From NCBI GenBank assembly GCA_963727815.1, contig CAVSGV010000006.1, forward strand, positions 583,471 through 647,470: a stretch of 64,000 bases of DNA. The letters run 5' to 3'. The notes beneath the pieces are model-generated. The model was not told where the DNA came from. It saw only the letters and a list, made by a program, of their open reading frames with translations, and searched no databases. Every line of letters starts with the position of its first letter. The stretch's first letter is position 1. A program made the position numbers and the translations under genes. The stretch is from an uncultured bacterium. Lineage in GTDB: Bacteria > Margulisbacteria > WOR-1 > CAVSGV01. Positions 2,032 to 47,674 of the stretch are shown here, piece after piece.

Positions 2032-5000
2032 TGTACCAGCTTTTCTATCTCCGTGTCCGTAAGCGGAACGACCCTGACGTGTTTGGAACTTATAAGGCTG
2101 TACGCGCACGGGACGACGAACAGCGTCAGTATTGTCGAAACAAAAAGCCCGCCGATGACCGCTATGGCCATAGGCGTGCGGACCTCGGCTCCCGGACCCC
2201 ACGCCAGGGCAGGGGGAATGGCGCCGGCGATGGTCGCGACGGACGTCATCAATATGGGACGAAGCCTTATGGGGCACGCTTCAAGCAGCGCTTCCCTTAT
2301 GTTCATGCCGCGCTCTCTCATCTGGTTCGTGAACTCGACGAGCAGGATGGAATTCTTTTTCACGATGCCCATCAGTAGTATGAATCCGATCATGCTGTAA
2401 ATGTTCAGCGACTGTCCCGTGACATACAGCGCAAGGAACGCTCCCGAGAAACTGAAGGGCAGGGCGGCGAGGACGACCACCGGATCGCTGAAGCTGTTGA
2501 ACTGCGAGCCCAGCACCATGTACGCGACGATTATACCCAGGATCAGCGCGAATATCAGGCTGTCAAAAGATTCCTTGAAAGCCTGCGCGTTGCCGCTGAA
2601 AACTATGTGATATTCCGGCGGCAGGGTCGCATTCGCTACCTCCTGTATCTTATCGAGCACCGCCGCCTGGCTCTTTCCGGGAGCGATGTTGCCGGCGATG
2701 GTTATGGCGCGCTCCCTGTCCAGGCGCGAGATGCTCTGCATGGCCGGCCGCTCAACGAGATGCGCCACCTTGCCCAGAGGGATAAGCTCGCCTCTGTTGT
2801 TGTGGACGTAAACGTCTTTCAGGATGTCCGGCCTGGTGTGCTCCGCGCCTATCATCTTTACAAGGATGTCATATCTGTGCCCGGCGTTCTCATATGTTCC
2901 CACCTTAAGCCCGCCGACCAGCGCCGAGATGGTCTGGCCGATCTCCGCGAAACTTACTCCGCGGCTTGCGGCAAGGTCGCGGTCCGGCACGATGTCATAT
3001 TCCGTCAGCCCCAGAAGATAATTGCTGTTCAGGTCCGTGGTCAGTCCCGTTTTTTCTATGTTGGCCATCAGCTGGACGCTGAGAGCTCCCAGCTTGTCCC
3101 AGTCGGGGCCCTTCAGCGTAAGTTCGATGGGATACTGGCCGGTGGACGCGAAACCGCGCAGCGACGGGTCTGTGACAAAAGCCTGTAGATCGGGTATTTT
3201 TTTCAGCTCGTTCCTGACGGCCTTCATCGACTCGGCCTGGGAAAGCCTGTGATGAAGGACCGGATCGATTCCGCGTTTTCCCTTGGGTTTAAGAGTAAGG
3301 AAGACATAAGGATTGATTAAGCCGGCCGCTTCCGCCGAATCCTCCGACCGTGGAGAAGACCGAATCCACTTCCGGCCGCTTTGCGATGATGGATTCCACC
3401 AGCCTGGATTTTTGGTCCGTGAAAGAAAGCGATGCCCAGGCGGGGGTCTGCAGGCGCACCGCGTAAAGGCTCTGGTCCTGCGGCGGAACAAGCTCGCTTC
3501 TCAGCGCTTGCCCACGGAGAAAGTGATGATAAAGAAGACCACCGACGACCACAGGATAAGTCCCCTGTGGTCCAGCGCCCAGTTAAGCGCCTTGCGGTAA
3601 GCGCCGTTCAGCCGCTTGAAATTCGTGTCTGATGTAAGCGGAGAACTTGTTGTCCTTGGCGCCCACCTCCACGAACTGCGAACAGCGCATCGGCGTAAGC
3701 GTAAGCGCTTCGAACAGCGAGAGAAGCACGGCGACGCTGATGGTCATGCCGAACTGGTAAAAATATTTCCCGATTATGCCCGTCATGAACGCCACGGGAA
3801 GGAATATGGCTATTATCGCGATGCTCGCCGCCATGGCCGCGAAGGTTATCTCCCGCGCGCCTTTCAGCGCTGCCTGGACCTTGTCCTCGCCTTTCTCCTG
3901 ATGCCGCATTATATTTTCAAGCACCATGATCGCGTCATCAACGACTATCCCTATCGCGAGGCTCAGCGCCATGAGAGTGAACATGTTCAGCGTAAAGCCC
4001 ATGAAATAAACGAAAATAAAAGTCCCGATGATCGACGTGGGTATCGCGAGCCAGACGTTCAGGACCGCCGACCACGACCCCAGGAAGAACCAGCAGACAA
4101 GTCCGGTGAGTATCGCCGAAAGAAGAAGCGTCACTTTAAGTTCGTTCACGGCATCGCTTATGAATTTTGTGTTGTCCATCCGGACCGAAAGCGTCATTCC
4201 TTTCGGCAGCTCTTTTTGGACCTCCGCCATTTTCGCGCGGACGCCTTTAGCTATTTCCACGGCATTTGTGTTCCTCTGTTTCAGGATGCCGAGGCCCACC
4301 GCGGCCACTCCGTTGGCGCGCGCTATGTGCTCTATGTCGGCCAGGCTGTCTTTTATGCTCGCCACCTTTATGAGAGTTATGGGAGCGTAATTCGCCTGTC
4401 CGCCGCGGTAGTTGAGCCGGATGTTCTCGAACTCCTGGACGCTCTTTGCCTCGCCCATCATCCGGACGGTGTGTTCGGCTTTTACGTCCGAAACGTAGCC
4501 GGCGGGAAGCTCCACGTGCTCGTTCATGACAGCGCTTACGACGTCCGTGGCGGTAAGTGCGTAGCGGTTCAGATCGTCCTTTCTCACTTCCACGCGCAGG
4601 TTCGGGTCCACGTATCCGCCGAGAACAACGTCCCCGACGCCGGAGACCGTGGTGAACTTGTCTTTCAGGATATTGTTCACGTAGGCCATGGCATCGCGGG
4701 TGGAAATGCCGGTGGTGTTCAGCGTCAGCCATATTATCGGCTGGTCGTCGGGATTGGTCTTTGTGATGACGGGCGGATCGATCTGCGACGGCAGCAGCCT
4801 CTGCGCCTGCGATATCTTTGACTGTATCTCCTGCACCGCCACGTCCACGTTCTTGTTGAGATTGAATTCCACCGTTACGCTCGTGGCGCCGTCGCGGGAA
4901 TTGGAGGTGACGGTCCTTACGCCTTCCACTCCCATGACCGCGTCCTCAATGTAGTCGGCGACGTCCGTTTCCATTATCTGGGGGGAAGCGCCGGGATAAG

Positions 5001-5148
5001 TGACGGTTACGGTAACGACGGGGAAATCCACGTCCGGCATGAGGCTGACGCCCATCCTCTGGAAAGAGATCGCGCCGAAAAGGATCAGCGCGAACATCAT
5101 CATCCACGCGAATACCGGCCGCTTTATCGAAATGTCGGATAATATCAT
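2028..5148 (-). pseudogene. RND (AcrB/HAE1-type) efflux permease interrupted by at least 3 frameshifts
   Basis: The N-terminal 521-aa ORF (3583..5148, MILSDISIKRPVFAWMM...) and the C-terminal ORF (2028..~3330, ...LLMGIVKKNSILLVEF...RLRPILMTS...) are the two halves of one ~1040-aa RND pump. The joining segment must be read in other frames: FKRLNGAYRKALNWALDHRGLILWSSVVFFIITFSVGKR, then LRSELVPPQDQSLYAVRLQTP...VFSTVGGFGGS. Shifts lie near 3625, 3498 and 3330. Confidence 0.8.
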
Positions 5149-44841: not shown

Positions 44842-45993
44842 TTGGATAATGGCATAATCGGCGAGGGTTCTAAAACTTTTGCGACCATCAAAGTGATGGG
44901 AATAGGCGGCGGTGGAACGAATGCCGTCAATAGGATGGTGGGCTCCGGACTTAAAGGCGTTGAATTCTGGGCGGTAAACACCGACAACCAGGCACTCTCC
45001 GTTTCACTCGCAGACCACAGGCTTCAAATAGGCGGAAAGCTCACAAAAGGGCTGGGCGCGGGATCAAATCCCGAAATAGGACAAAAAGCCGCAGAAGAAT
45101 CCAGAGAAGACATCAAAGCAGCTCTTGCTGACGCGGACATGGTTTTTCTTACCGCGGGCATGGGCGGCGGGACGGGAACAGGCGCTTCTCCGGTCATCGC
45201 TGAAGTTGCCAGAGAACTGGGAGCATTGACCGTCGGCGTCGTAACAAAGCCTTTCAGGTTCGAAGGCCCGGTAAGGATATCTCAGGCTGAAAGCGGAGTC
45301 GTCCTCCTCAGAGAAAAAGTCGACGCTCTCATCGTAATTCCCAACGACAAATTACTCCAAGTAGTCGAGAAACGCACGTCGATAATCGAAGCGTTCAAGA
45401 TAGCCGATGATGTTCTCCGTCACGGCGTAAAAGGAATATCCGATCTCATCACCGTTCCCGGCCTCATCAATCTCGATTTTGCGGACATCAGGACCATCAT
45501 GTTCGATGCCGGCAGCGCGATGATGGGCATCGGCACTGCTTCGGGCGAGAACAGGGCGATGGAAGCCGCGGAAGCCGCGATATCCAGTCCGCTGCTTGAG
45601 GAGACCATCACTGGGGCGAAAGGCGTGGTGTTCAACGTGACCGGCGGCAGCGACCTTACATTGTACGAAGTGAACGACGCGGCGGAGGTCATATATAACG
45701 CGGTCGATCCGGAAGCCAACATCATATTCGGCGCCGTCATCGACGAGAAGCTCCAGGGCGAGGTCGTAATCACGGTCATCGCCACCGGTTTCAAGAACGC
45801 AACAAGGAAAAAGAGCGCAGGGGCTGAAGAGATGAACATTCGGAACAAGATGAAGCCGGAGATAATGAGCCCAGAACAAAGAGAAGATCGAGCTGCCCGC
45901 TTTCCTCAAGAACGTCTGACCAACTCGGTCGTTTGTATTCGAACCCTTTGTGATAAAATCATTGTATGGAACCAAAAGCCACGGAACTTATAG
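44842..45993 (+). CDS. ftsZ: Cell-division GTPase FtsZ (3' end frameshifted)
   Basis: [10 protein letters not shown] and [11 protein letters not shown] tubulin signatures, with a TTG start. The called ORF ends in a non-FtsZ tail. The conserved C-terminal peptide ...[13 protein letters not shown] is encoded in the +1 frame (45869-45919). Confidence 0.9.
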
Positions 45994-46033: not shown

Positions 46034-46252
46034 GTGATGGTCGTAGGAATGATCGCGCTGCTGTTCAGCTGGTGGATGATAAAGAAGTGGAAAGAGCCCC
46101 TGACTTGGCAGTTCATGATATTCATCGGCCTGTCGGTCTTTATAGTTCTTTACGGGTTATTTATCCTTATTTTCCAGCCGCAGTGGTGGATACCCGCCGT
46201 GGTGGCCGACGAAATAAAACCCCAAATCCAAACTTCAAAATCCCAACAATGA
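46034..46252 (+). CDS. Small two-TM membrane protein (GTG start)
   Basis: 72 aa with two hydrophobic helices. Its 3' end overlaps GGGATTT-type repeat sequence, so it may not be a real gene. Confidence 0.3.
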   Translation: MMVVGMIALLFSWWMIKKWKEPLTWQFMIFIGLSVFIVLYGLFILIFQPQWWIPAVVADEIKPQIQTSKSQQ

Positions 46253-46318
46253 GTGGCTTCGCCACGATATTTTATATATAATAATTAAGTTATATTTGAT
46301 TTGATCTTTTGGATTTCA

Positions 46319-46373
46319 TTTGGGATTTGGTCATTGGGATTTTCGCTGAGTGCAGCGAAGCGTTGGGGGATCG
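46319..46373 (+). repeat. 55-nt direct repeat, copy 1 (tRNA-Gln upstream region + first 10 nt of the tRNA)
   Basis: TTTGGGATTTGGTCATTGGGATTTTCGCTGAGTGCAGCGAAGCGTTGGGGGATCG. It is 51/55 identical to 46471-46525. Confidence 0.85.
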
Positions 46374-46411
46374 CCCGCCTTCGCTGAAGCTACAGCGGGC
46401 AGGTCTAACGG
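46364..46411 (+). pseudogene. 5' fragment of tRNA-Gln (nt 1-18) split by a 30-nt hairpin insert
   Basis: TGGGGGATCG + [CCCGCCTTCGCTGAAGCTACAGCGGGCAGG] + TCTAACGG equals nt 1-10 and 11-18 of the intact tRNA at 46516. The sequence diverges afterwards. Confidence 0.7.
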
Positions 46412-46470
46412 AAATAAACTTTTGTTTTCTTGCGTATTTTTGTAATTTGTCATTTGTGATTTATTTGGAA

Positions 46471-46525
46471 TTTGGGATTTGGTCATTGGGATTTACGCTG
46501 AGCAAAGCGAAGCGTTGGGGGATCG
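46471..46525 (+). repeat. 55-nt direct repeat, copy 2
   Basis: TTTGGGATTTGGTCATTGGGATTTACGCTGAGCAAAGCGAAGCGTTGGGGGATCG. It runs into the intact tRNA-Gln. Confidence 0.85.
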
Positions 46526-46589
46526 TCTAACGGTAGGACAGCTGACTCTGGATCAGCTAATCGGGGTTCAAATCCCTGTCCCCCAGCCA
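46516..46589 (+). tRNA. tRNA-Gln (anticodon CUG), CCA-encoded
   Basis: Hand-folded cloverleaf. Acceptor stem TGGGGGA/TCCCCCA; anticodon stem GCTGA/TCAGC with loop CT-CTG-GA; T arm CGGGG-TTCAAAT-CCCTG; discriminator G + CCA. The 5' UGGGG and 3' CCCCAGCCA ends resemble E. coli tRNA-Gln. Confidence 0.9.
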
Positions 46590-46632
46590 GCCTTCGCCAA
46601 GGCTTCGGCTGGCAAGCCAGCAGGGTAAATTT

Positions 46633-46878
46633 ATGACATATTATGTGTATATACTTCGCAGCACCAAAACCAACAATCTCTATAAAGGGATCACAACTGA
46701 TATGGATCGCAGGATGAAACAGCATAATATCGATAAATCTTCCCATACCGATAAAACAGACGGACCTTTTGAAATATTATGGCTTTGTGCTTTCACTGAC
46801 AAAATAAGGGCGATTGATTTTGAAAAATATCTGAAAAGTGGCTCAGGTAGAGCATTTATAAATAGACATTTAACATGA
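46633..46878 (+). CDS. GIY-YIG nuclease-domain protein (UPF0213/YhbQ-like, stand-alone)
   Basis: 81 aa: YYVYILRS...LYKGITTDMDRRMKQHN...FEKYLKSGSGRAFI (GIY / YIG / Arg / Glu elements). Confidence 0.8.
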   Translation: MTYYVYILRSTKTNNLYKGITTDMDRRMKQHNIDKSSHTDKTDGPFEILWLCAFTDKIRAIDFEKYLKSGSGRAFINRHLT

Positions 46879-46880
46879 TA

Positions 46881-46937
46881 GGGGAACAAATCCTTGGCCG
46901 CCGAAGCCCGCAGGGCGAAGGAGGCCCTGTCCCCCAG
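46881..46937 (+). pseudogene. 3' fragment of tRNA-Gln (T arm + acceptor 3' strand) split by a 33-nt insert
   Basis: GGGGAACAAATCC + [TTGGCCGCCGAAGCCCGCAGGGCGAAGGAGGCC] + CTGTCCCCCAG, compared with intact GGGGTTCAAATCC|CTGTCCCCCAG. It begins 2 nt after the GIY-YIG stop. Confidence 0.7.
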
Positions 46938-47071
46938 TTAAGTACTTAGTGTGAGCATGAGTACGGTGTCTTGAGCAACGCAAAGATATAAGGCTCGTTA
47001 CTCAAAACTCAAACTCACACTCAAGACTATGATGCCGGCGCGGAGGACAAATCCCATAGAAAAACCCCGGA

Positions 47072-47674
47072 TCAAAGAGCAAGTATCTTGTCCGCTAAAT
47101 CGCTTACGAATGATTTGATCTCCTTGTCGGTCATCGTGCCGTTCGGAGAGGAAACAACAATCTCTATAAAATGGTCTTTTAGCCCGGTAAGGAATATCCA
47201 TTCAACATTTACGATGTTCCTCTTGGTGGTCTTGTATTTCACATAAAAGAAATTCATTTTCTTGCTCTGGCCCAACACGATCTTGCTGGATTCGATCTTA
47301 TTTGCCGTCTGATAAAAGTTCTTCAGAAGCAGGTCTGAAAAGGTGTTAAGGTATTTGCCGAACTCTGTTTTTACCGCGTTCGAATCTGTCCCGTTCGGAA
47401 TGGATTTTAAGTTGTTGTTATAGATGCAAACCGCGGTCGAGGCATCTTTCAGCTTATAATAAACTCCCATGCCCGCGCCCGGGTCCACTTTTTCCGCGTT
47501 AATTATGCTTGTCCTGACCCAGCCGGATATCTTGGCGGGAAGGGATCTGCTCATTTTCATTTCATAGCCGGTCTCGGCATAAAGGACGTATTGAAGCCCG
47601 ATAACTGCGATCAACACGAACAGGACCGGGACAAATAGACGGAACATCAACGATGCATTTTTGCTGTTTTTCAT
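47072..47674 (-). CDS. Membrane-anchored hypothetical protein
   Basis: 200 aa with an N-terminal TM (LMFRLFVPVLFVLIAVIGL). AT-rich gene; no family recognised. Confidence 0.5.
   Translation of the reverse strand: MKNSKNASLMFRLFVPVLFVLIAVIGLQYVLYAETGYEMKMSRSLPAKISGWVRTSIINAEKVDPGAGMGVYYKLKDASTAVCIYNNNLKSIPNGTDSNAVKTEFGKYLNTFSDLLLKNFYQTANKIESSKIVLGQSKKMNFFYVKYKTTKRNIVNVEWIFLTGLKDHFIEIVVSSPNGTMTDKEIKSFVSDLADKILAL

Follow-up and report, generated by a model that had tools for sequence, protein, structure and literature searches.

A GIY-YIG nuclease gene between hairpins at tRNA and tmRNA gene ends: a candidate minimal mobile cassette

Why should an intact bacterial tRNA gene be followed almost immediately by a tiny nuclease gene, with pieces of that same tRNA on both sides? 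The question is raised by a 64-kb stretch of DNA from an uncultured bacterium (hereafter the window, meaning the whole stretch that was analysed). An earlier reading of the letters, made without database searches (the sequence-only reading), had described a tRNA-Gln(CUG) at positions 46516-46589 followed after 43 nucleotides (nt) by a stand-alone GIY-YIG gene of 81 amino acids (aa). ARAGORN, Rfam and Pfam agree with that description, and ARAGORN finds this tRNA-Gln(CUG) as the sole tRNA of the window. We propose, with a probability of roughly 0.6, that positions 46587-46937 constitute an inserted ~350-bp minimal selfish cassette, or a recently mobile element, targeted to the ends of tRNA and transfer-messenger RNA (tmRNA) genes. 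What is new here is a hairpin-associated minimal GIY-YIG nuclease with a precise address at tRNA/tmRNA ends, together with new hairpins. The core of the locus consists of the following features.

46516-46589, plus strand: intact tRNA-Gln(CUG) with encoded CCA at 46587-46589 (ARAGORN; Rfam RF00005, 60.6 bits, E = 2.6e-12).
46633-46878, plus strand: stand-alone GIY-YIG nuclease gene, 81 aa (Pfam PF01541, E = 6.6e-17).
46881-46893, plus strand: degenerate copy of tRNA positions 50-62, GGGGAACAAATCC versus GGGGTTCAAATCC, beginning 2 nt past the GIY-YIG stop codon.
46927-46937, plus strand: perfect copy of tRNA positions 63-73, CTGTCCCCCAG, without CCA and followed by native flank (exact 13-mer repeat).
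46587-46937, plus strand: net inserted cassette of 351 nt, if placed after discriminator G73 (comparison with empty-site alleles; loci L142, L094, L089 and L093).

The copy of the tRNA T arm and acceptor strand past the gene, which had been picked out from the sequence alone, has no comparable match in shuffled sequences, but it is not continuous: a 31-nt hairpin, overlooked at the time, splits it between tRNA positions 62 and 63. The window contains exactly two instances of the 13-mer CCCTGTCCCCCAG, and none of 100 shuffles yields two matches; the 23-mer core TTGGGATTTGGTCATTGGGATTT of a second repeat, located upstream of the tRNA, also occurs twice in the window and in none of 100 shuffles. 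The tRNA-fragment matches are far beyond chance. Past the 3' fragment the window continues with CAG and then TTAAGTACTTAG. The copy at 46927-46937, which lacks CCA, appears to be the displaced native 3' end of the tRNA gene, equivalent to a target-site duplication, and the cassette would sit exactly at the boundary between discriminator base and CCA of tRNA-Gln(CUG), supplying the CCA.

It is extremely improbable that this arrangement reflects chance similarity or a chimeric assembly. A public short-read contig with identical downstream genes (ERR11594402_1244045; loci L087/L088) stops at window position 47000, shortly beyond the cassette, which marks the region as hard to assemble and fits strain heterogeneity or repeats at the locus. 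Against an artefact stand the shuffle tests and the presence of the same architecture in at least eight independent assemblies (L001-L004, L169, L170, L005 and L006), as well as that of the 5' fragment in L091, and we rejected it on these grounds. A group I intron or a split or permuted tRNA was likewise rejected as the source of the fragments, since no intron signal is found in the window and hairpin insertions in relatives account for the pieces. At the E-value threshold, Rfam returned no intron on the window locus and, besides a spurious long non-coding RNA match, the tRNA only. The spurious match, to the human ST7-OT4_3 region, covers 46798-47085 on the minus strand with 26 bits, below the gathering threshold of 50, and is due to chance.

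Is the cassette present at the same place in relatives? FtsZ puts the window in Candidatus Margulisiibacteriota (WOR-1/Saganbacteria), with 85-87% identity to named genomes, and an FtsZ-anchored scan of metagenome contigs provided related loci, in which the gene order ftsZ, small membrane protein, tRNA-Gln(CTG) is kept. Three of them, L094, L142 and L089 (FtsZ 83-85% identical), are empty sites, harbouring an intact tRNA-Gln(CTG) with neither a GIY-YIG gene nor fragments. There is thus a presence/absence polymorphism of the cassette at the ftsZ-linked tRNA-Gln locus, from which we infer mobility. Comparison with the empty-site relatives delimits the net insert of the window to 46587-46937 (351 nt), and in its empty state G73 of the tRNA-Gln would have been joined directly to TTAAGTAC. 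The tRNA of L142 lacks an encoded CCA and continues directly into TTTAGAAATTAGAT, which matches both the window flank past the 3' copy (TTAAGTACTTAG) and the L093 flank (TTTAGTAATTAGAT); this match comes from a direct reading of the first ~12-18 nt, the MAFFT alignment of the downstream flanks being poor. L093 itself harbours a tRNA with CCA, followed by ~180 nt of hairpins without an open reading frame (ORF), by GGAGAACAAATCCCTGTCTCCCAG and by the native flank. A TT-to-AA change in the downstream T-loop copy is common to the window and L093, which suggests one shared old insertion. Each acceptor copy also matches its own tRNA (CCCCC versus CTCCC; 46927-46937 versus 46576-46586 in the window, and the equivalent positions in L093), which would imply gene conversion between the copies or independent insertions.

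The arrangement is not confined to this locus. We placed the closest homologues of the window GIY-YIG protein (54-79% identity) on their contigs: L001-L004 and L169 lie at a tRNA-Gln(UUG) in a gene neighbourhood unlike that of the window, L005 at a tRNA-Gln(CUG) whose acceptor stem is different, L006 at a tRNA with a group I intron and L007 at a tRNA-Asn, and L170 comes from the window's own lineage. The order in L001-L007, L169 and L170 is tRNA, a hairpin termed H at the CCA, the gene, an inverted H and a perfect copy of the last 13-20 nt of the locus' own tRNA. Overall, ten independent loci combine a tRNA, a hairpin, a GIY-YIG gene and a perfect 13-20 nt end copy; their tRNAs comprise three Gln types besides Asn, Ser, Arg and Ala, plus one interrupted by a group I intron. 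In every case the acceptor-strand copy is free of mismatches and tracks the tRNA of its own locus; the T-loop-like piece before the hairpin is degenerate. End copies of 14-20 nt are kept in L009, L041 and L062 too, and L005, L009 and L041 look like nested or tandem inserts.

A few of these loci show additional complexity. In L005, an N run at 3700-3960 is bracketed by cassette ends (hairpin past the tRNA, 3' tRNA copy, hairpin again), and this locus probably harbours two cassettes in tandem. In L006 and L012, the tRNA gene directly before the GIY-YIG cassette contains a group I intron (3661-3900 and 2545-2827; Rfam RF00028, 93 and 98 bits), so that two kinds of selfish element share one tRNA gene. 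L170 has a further tRNA-like 3' fragment, TGGTTCGACTCCCACTCGACTCTGCC, directly past the duplicated tRNA-Gln end, and the contig of L171 ends with a second GIY-YIG gene (3100-3240), 1.5 kb past the first.

Integrase islands are classically recognised by direct repeats that run from the T-loop or T-stem of a tRNA or tmRNA gene to its 3' end. Such repeats in the window, L009, L041 and L062, and the nested tandem accretion in L005, L009 and L041, in which each insert is followed by a tRNA-end copy, might therefore be read as an attL/attR pair left by a tyrosine integrase that is encoded elsewhere or was lost, the GIY-YIG gene being cargo or the remnant of an island. We regard this origin as rather improbable. 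No integrase gene was found beside the cassette in the loci with gene calls, nor any integrase domain in the scanned window ORFs beside it. The left junction is at the CCA, with a hairpin arm built from that CCA, and a hairpin interrupts the downstream copy at 62/63 in the window, L001, L005, L006 and L169 and at 60/61 in L170, i.e. in six window-type loci. Moreover, a unit of 0.3-0.5 kb recurs at many tRNAs in many phyla, which random decay of islands would not yield, and the family is essentially absent from phages and plasmids: plasmid and phage collections gave only weak UPF0213-like matches with no sign of carriage there, the phage records yielding 1 weak match among 50,697.

The breadth of the family emerged from a scan of one genome per species, which gave >600 exact matches to the signature YLKSGSGRA, and the best 80 loci were analysed. 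Hosts include Bradyrhizobium and other Alphaproteobacteria, Acidobacteriota, Verrucomicrobiota, Bacteroidota, Babeliales, candidate phyla and others. Once 5 contigs that were too short and 2 loci without a full ORF had been left out, 58 of 73 assessable loci (79%) lie directly after a tRNA (46) or tmRNA (12) gene, the end of which is on the same strand 50-380 nt upstream of the GIY-YIG gene; among the remaining loci of the 80, 3 follow a T-loop-to-CCA fragment and 12 follow nothing of the kind. Fifteen tRNA identities are used. The 5' half of the hairpin is at most a few nt from the RNA gene end in 48 of the 58 junctions, the usual reading being NCCA followed by GCCTTCGC; in genes without an encoded CCA, the 5' arm of the hairpin is made of the last bases of the tRNA itself (in L064, CCCAGC followed by TTTCGC...GCTTCAGCTGGG). 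Of 84 loci, 69 have an H motif in the 400 nt before the gene, and the 379 kb of flanks contain no more than 14 others. By these data the cassette family appears widespread, chromosomal and located directly past tRNA or tmRNA 3' ends. Together with the empty sites and the recurrence at ten loci, the 79% of loci at tRNA/tmRNA ends bear out what had been proposed from the window, namely a small integrase-less GIY-YIG element that uses a tRNA gene as its target and comes with tRNA duplications. At the gathering threshold, Rfam found tRNA, tmRNA and two group I introns only on 16 related loci, the element past the CCA being covered by no family, and PADLOC defence-system models gave no match. In the literature searched, no paper connects bacterial GIY-YIG genes with tRNA or tmRNA gene ends.

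What distinguishes the ends of the cassette? Three copies of the conserved imperfect hairpin H are present at the window locus, one of them accompanied by a smaller hairpin.

46586-46613, plus strand: H2, the TTC form, GCCAGCC TTC GCCAAGGC TTC GGCTGGC, whose 5' arm is the tRNA discriminator base plus CCA.
46608-46621, plus strand: S2, a small conserved hairpin, GCTGGC-AA-GCCAGC, overlapping the 3' arm of H2; GGCTGGCANGCCAG(CC) is recurrent across loci.
46896-46926, plus strand: H3 (or HB), the GAA form, 31 nt, GGCCGCC GAA GCCC GCA GGGC GAA GGAGGCC, between positions 62 and 63 of the 3' tRNA copy.
46374-46402, plus strand: H1, without ORF, 29 nt, CCCGCC TTC GC TGAA GC TAC AGCGGGCAG, between tRNA nt 10 and 11 of a 5' tRNA fragment.

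H consists of a lower stem of 7 bp and a variable upper stem, separated by a symmetric 3x3 internal loop (TTC/TTC or GAA/GAA). Read on one strand, this loop is CTTCG opposite CTTCG, and read on the other it is CGAAG opposite CGAAG, with G facing A at both ends and A or T in the middle. A regular expression for the motif matches four times in the window, namely at H1, H2, H3 and one site that is likely due to chance, versus a shuffle mean of 0.57. Folded as DNA, H2 reaches -10.9 kcal/mol (z -2.85), clearly better than shuffles. H1, which is 76% identical to H2 and also matches the motif, reaches -8.2 kcal/mol, an energy that is marginal versus shuffles of the single-stranded DNA. H3 is inverted relative to H2, matching the motif on the minus strand (inverted repeat of 16 nt, 88% complementary), and it has the same position in L001, L005, L006 and L169. 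H2 and H3 thus bracket the GIY-YIG gene as inverted repeats.

Covariation was assessed over 103 distinct hairpins, using only the stem columns that the search pattern leaves free. Their pairing frequency is 0.752, versus 0.604 with shuffled partners, and 0 of 2000 shuffles reach the observed value, in a type of test that relatedness among hairpins inflates. Compensatory swaps include CG 50 / AT 38 for one lower-stem pair and TA 40 / CG 40 / AT 6 / GC 3 for an upper-stem pair. The swaps are real despite this relatedness, and the H hairpins are conserved structures. A second, longer stem starts from the CA of CCA in most loci, with at least 9 of the first 10 positions paired in 35 of 47 loci, 15-20 perfect pairs in several of them and covarying variants such as CAACCTACGC/GCGTAGGTTG. 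In most loci the partner strand is found before the ORF, and there is none there in the window or its nearest relatives (7 of 10 pairs, p 0.6); the window thus represents a variant layout, with the gene between two hairpins. In 12 of 70 loci, the 3' arm of a GAA-form hairpin, GCGAAGG(A/C)GG, ends 4-15 nt before the start codon, i.e. at the Shine-Dalgarno position; examples among majority-type loci are L086 (2960-2988), L056, L036, L043 and L171. A Shine-Dalgarno sequence inside a GAA-form stem could throttle translation of the nuclease.

Upstream of the functional tRNA, the window carries what looks like an older layer of the same process.

46318-46373, plus strand: upstream-region copy 1 followed by tRNA-Gln nt 1-10 (46364-46373); direct repeat with 46470-46525, 56 nt, 93% identical.
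46364-46411, plus strand: 5' tRNA-Gln fragment made of nt 1-10, the H1 hairpin and nt (10)11-18, GTCTAACGG (sequence; orthologous arrangement in L091).
46412-46469, plus strand: A+T-rich spacer, similar in its 3' part to the upstream region native to relatives (aligned with L093, L142 and L094).
46470-46515, plus strand: upstream-region copy 2, native, before the functional tRNA (empty-site relatives align to copy 2).

The direct repeat that had been noticed upstream of the tRNA is confirmed, at 56 nt and 93% identity. Both parts of the 5' fragment, nt 1-10 and 11-18, are also there (GTCTAACGG at 46403-46411 matches tRNA nt 10-18), but they are not contiguous, the 29-nt hairpin H1, overlooked at the time, standing between them. 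A telling parallel is L091, in which an old tRNA-Gln is found in four pieces, in the order nt 1-10, hairpin, nt 11-18, insert, nt 19-31, hairpin, nt 37-76. This region lies ~330-760 nt past the ftsZ stop codon (ftsZ end at 5068), and its hairpins interrupt the tRNA at nt 10/11, at nt 18/19 and within the anticodon loop. The insert consists of an H hairpin with a different, complete tRNA-Gln(CTG) in its loop (CCCGCCTTCG...tRNA...CTTCGGCGGGCAAG), and L090 has this same foreign tRNA-Gln in place of nt 1-18. The 5' fragment of the window and that of L091 (in the latter TGGGGGATCG, hairpin, GTCTAACGG) both consist of nt 1-10, a hairpin and nt 11-18, and they are orthologous.

Positions 46364-46411 are most probably debris of an older tRNA-Gln copy, which was broken at nt 10/11 by an ORF-less H hairpin and functionally replaced by the intact copy. 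The sequence-only reading had offered as an alternative that a cassette carrying its own replacement tRNA split an old tRNA-Gln gene. That is literally what is seen in L091 and L090, and for the window it probably accounts for the 5' fragment. ORF-less H units such as H1 and those of L091 at nt 10/11, 18/19 and the anticodon loop resemble the non-autonomous miniature inverted-repeat transposable elements (MITEs) and repetitive extragenic palindromic (REP) elements. They could be non-autonomous derivatives of the cassette, the L091 hairpin carrying a tRNA as cargo.

Other peculiarities of the neighbourhood can be set apart. A+T-rich inverted repeats (AAATCCAAAC.../...TTGGGATTTGG; 46212-46246 versus 46320-46342 and 46472-46494) border the stretch from the small membrane-protein gene to the tRNA; since similar repeats are present in L090 and L093, they belong to the locus itself rather than to the cassette. 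Between the same two genes, L089 has an extra ORF of 122 aa belonging to the 23S rRNA-intervening-sequence protein family (PF05635, E 1.8e-19). The window FtsZ ORF (44842-45993) encodes 383 aa from a TTG start, compared with ~345-360 aa in relatives, and the tail past residue ~350 is unmatched in most of them, so that the C-terminal tail (or the start) differs. An exact-sequence look-up found no identical record for the GIY-YIG or FtsZ proteins of the window. For the proteins of the two next genes downstream it gave a single short contig, the one that stops at position 47000 and is therefore uninformative as to an empty site.

What kind of enzyme does the cassette encode? The window protein matches PF01541 with 62 bits (cut-off 22.6) and has every position that is invariant in a 29-sequence family alignment, Y6, Y17, R27, H31 and E64 among them. 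Its dN/dS value is 0.069 relative to the L001 gene, which places the protein under purifying selection. Profile searches gave the UPF0213 protein BH0048 (1zg2; E 2.1e-12) and Slx1 (E 1e-8) as the best solved relatives, with no Ssn structure among the PDB matches; TIGR01453 reaches 15.9 bits versus a cut-off of 56, and PHROG matches are weak, covering mainly the N-terminal part. An AlphaFold2 model (pLDDT 89.5; elements E-E-H-E-H-H) has Foldseek probabilities of 1.00 to UPF0213 and Slx1 and superimposes on Slx1 with a TM-score of 0.72 and an rmsd of 2.1-2.4 A, that with I-TevI being only 0.49. The C-terminal signature FEKYLKSGSGRAF (KSGSGRAF) is its own and sets it apart as a separate subfamily. 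With its single domain of 81 aa and no accessory domain, the protein is predicted to be a minimal Slx1/UPF0213-like GIY-YIG nuclease of the structure-specific type. Slx1 is structure-specific for branched DNA and stem-loops. The earlier description of the gene as a 'mobile or homing-type' element is therefore to be narrowed: its mobile part is supported, but this is not a classical homing endonuclease with a DNA-binding domain.

How might such a cassette move? By analogy with the site-specific single-stranded DNA nucleases (Ssn), the enzyme might recognise its own hairpins when they are extruded or single-stranded, and nick beside them. As the last nucleotides of the RNA gene complete the left hairpin, its 5' arm being the CCA or the last nt of that gene, insertion would be steered to tRNA and tmRNA genes at their conserved ends, and the gene would be spared. 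The T-loop-like piece at the right end possibly helps to direct insertion. Since the gap from the tRNA to the ORF contains neither a promoter-like nor a terminator-like site, the nuclease gene is presumably read through from the tRNA promoter. That the GIY-YIG protein is the mobility enzyme of the cassette is a tentative proposal, somewhat short of an even chance in our estimation.

Several observations weigh against a mobile, tRNA-targeted cassette. Neither excision junctions nor identical copies at two sites were seen that would denote current movement, and the 64-kb window contains no second cassette. In Bradyrhizobium, the cassette is found at the same tRNA-Ala(GGC) in 18 loci, which looks like long vertical inheritance, so that mobility would be rare, or the cassette domesticated, in that group. 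A downstream copy of the RNA gene end is present in only ~10 of 61 assessable loci, and in the majority layout both hairpins are upstream of the ORF, unlike in the window. H3 alone folds no better than shuffles (z -0.9). H motifs are not dispersed in the flanks as Ssn repeats are, and the SRM motif of the latter, HGTCWYN(0-2)YYVSBRHN(0-5)WNVSBRGN(0-2)RNCYNB, matches nowhere in the 64 kb of the window (shuffle mean 0.63), nor in any of 84 loci up to 500 nt from the gene. Finally, a duplication of 11-16 nt is unlike the products of known GIY-YIG enzymes, I-TevI for instance making 2-nt 3' overhangs.

Part of this evidence would suit a domesticated host module, engaged in restriction of incoming single-stranded DNA, in DNA repair or structure resolution, or in an RNA-level role at tRNA/tmRNA 3' ends. 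The gene would then be next to tRNA and tmRNA genes only for expression or processing within their transcript, and the hairpins would be RNA stabilisers, processing signals or translational occluders. Strong purifying selection, the stable tRNA-Ala(GGC) position across Bradyrhizobium, the lack of a promoter-like or terminator-like site between tRNA and ORF, the hairpin arms at the Shine-Dalgarno position and the long stem pairing with the CCA end all point that way, as do the host-level effect of Ssn on transformation (PMC11893778) and a prokaryotic Slx1-like/TrmH fusion noted previously (PMC1564403). We nevertheless consider it unlikely as the explanation, because it does not account for the presence/absence and debris states at one orthologous locus, the use of at least 15 tRNA partners plus tmRNA, the perfect duplications of each tRNA's own end that flank the cassette, or the ORF-less hairpins inside tRNA genes, which destroy those genes. 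Domestication and mobility are not exclusive.

If the inserted, tRNA-targeted cassette is taken as the starting point, a wider claim can be phrased, which we hold to be more doubtful than plausible: an unrecognised class of prokaryotic mobile element, with a GIY-YIG protein of 80 residues as its sole protein, CGAAG/CGAAG hairpin ends, insertion guided to the CCA of tRNA and tmRNA genes by a hairpin arm that pairs with their last nucleotides, duplication of the gene end, ORF-less derivatives that shatter tRNA genes and cargo versions that deliver replacement tRNAs. Should the 81-residue nuclease move the cassette, this would be one of the smallest autonomous DNA elements, with a possible new transposition or homing chemistry. 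The findings also offer a natural context for Ssn-like nucleases outside Neisseria, with a different hairpin type and a precise genomic address, and account for small 'GIY-YIG nuclease family protein' annotations beside tRNA/tmRNA genes in Bradyrhizobium, Acidobacteriota, Verrucomicrobiota, candidate phyla and others. They suggest a new route of tRNA gene decay and replacement, in which hairpins shatter genes and cassettes deliver a new tRNA copy. The hairpin-plus-CCA junction may tell how a tiny nuclease could recognise structured single-stranded DNA, with potential as a tool.

Among known systems, the islands and prophages of tyrosine integrases share with the cassette their tRNA and tmRNA 3' targets, an RNA gene left intact, a direct repeat of its 3' segment and tandem accretion. 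They differ in that the cassette has no integrase, measures 0.3-0.5 kb rather than kilobases and has a CCA-boundary junction with a hairpin. Eukaryotic elements that target tRNA genes (Dada DNA transposons; Ty3; TRE5-A, PMC5911963) likewise use conserved small-RNA genes as safe and well-expressed landing sites, but their enzymes (DDE transposases, integrases, reverse transcriptases), hosts and insertion positions are unrelated. I-TevI and T4 SegB have a GIY-YIG core and a selfish lifestyle in common with the cassette, and SegB acts in a tRNA gene region (PMC2330249). I-TevI and the Seg proteins are, in contrast, 2-3 times longer (~200-250 aa), possess DNA-binding domains, reside in phages or introns and spread by double-strand-break repair without duplications.

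The insertion sequences IS200/IS605 and the REP elements with their associated tyrosine transposases (RAYT) resemble the cassette more in form, with hairpin ends recognised as single-stranded DNA, a short target kept in left-end recognition and ORF-less derivatives. They use an HUH Y1 transposase, make no target duplication and have no link to tRNA genes, whereas the only ORF of the cassette is GIY-YIG, with no HUH Y1 transposase (TnpA). The cassette thus combines hairpin ends and a fixed left target, NCCA, with a target that is duplicated in window-type loci. To our knowledge, no bacterial insertion-sequence family uses a GIY-YIG enzyme.

On the side of the protein, the Slx1/UPF0213 group (BH0048/YhbQ type) provides the best sequence and fold matches and the same minimal domain without accessory domains. 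The cassette protein departs from it by its distinct C-terminal signature and by having no Slx4-like partner or RING domain, and Slx1/UPF0213 genes are not known to be associated with the ends of RNA genes or with H hairpins.

The closest described system is the Ssn family, to which we liken the cassette by layout and hairpins, not by sequence to SsnA. SsnA of Neisseria meningitidis (cd10448) binds its hairpin only as single-stranded DNA and cuts a few nt upstream, and the report on this family describes an insertion-sequence-like NTS-ssnA-NTS layout; the word 'tRNA' is absent from its main text (Chenal et al. 2025, PMC11893778). Unlike Ssn, the loci described here lack the SRM motif, their hairpins are not dispersed, and the cassette has its place at the CCA end of a tRNA or tmRNA gene, an end that it duplicates. 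Like Ssn, it is built around a small single-domain GIY-YIG protein that is wide among bacteria, with oriented hairpin repeats flanking the gene, sometimes on both sides.

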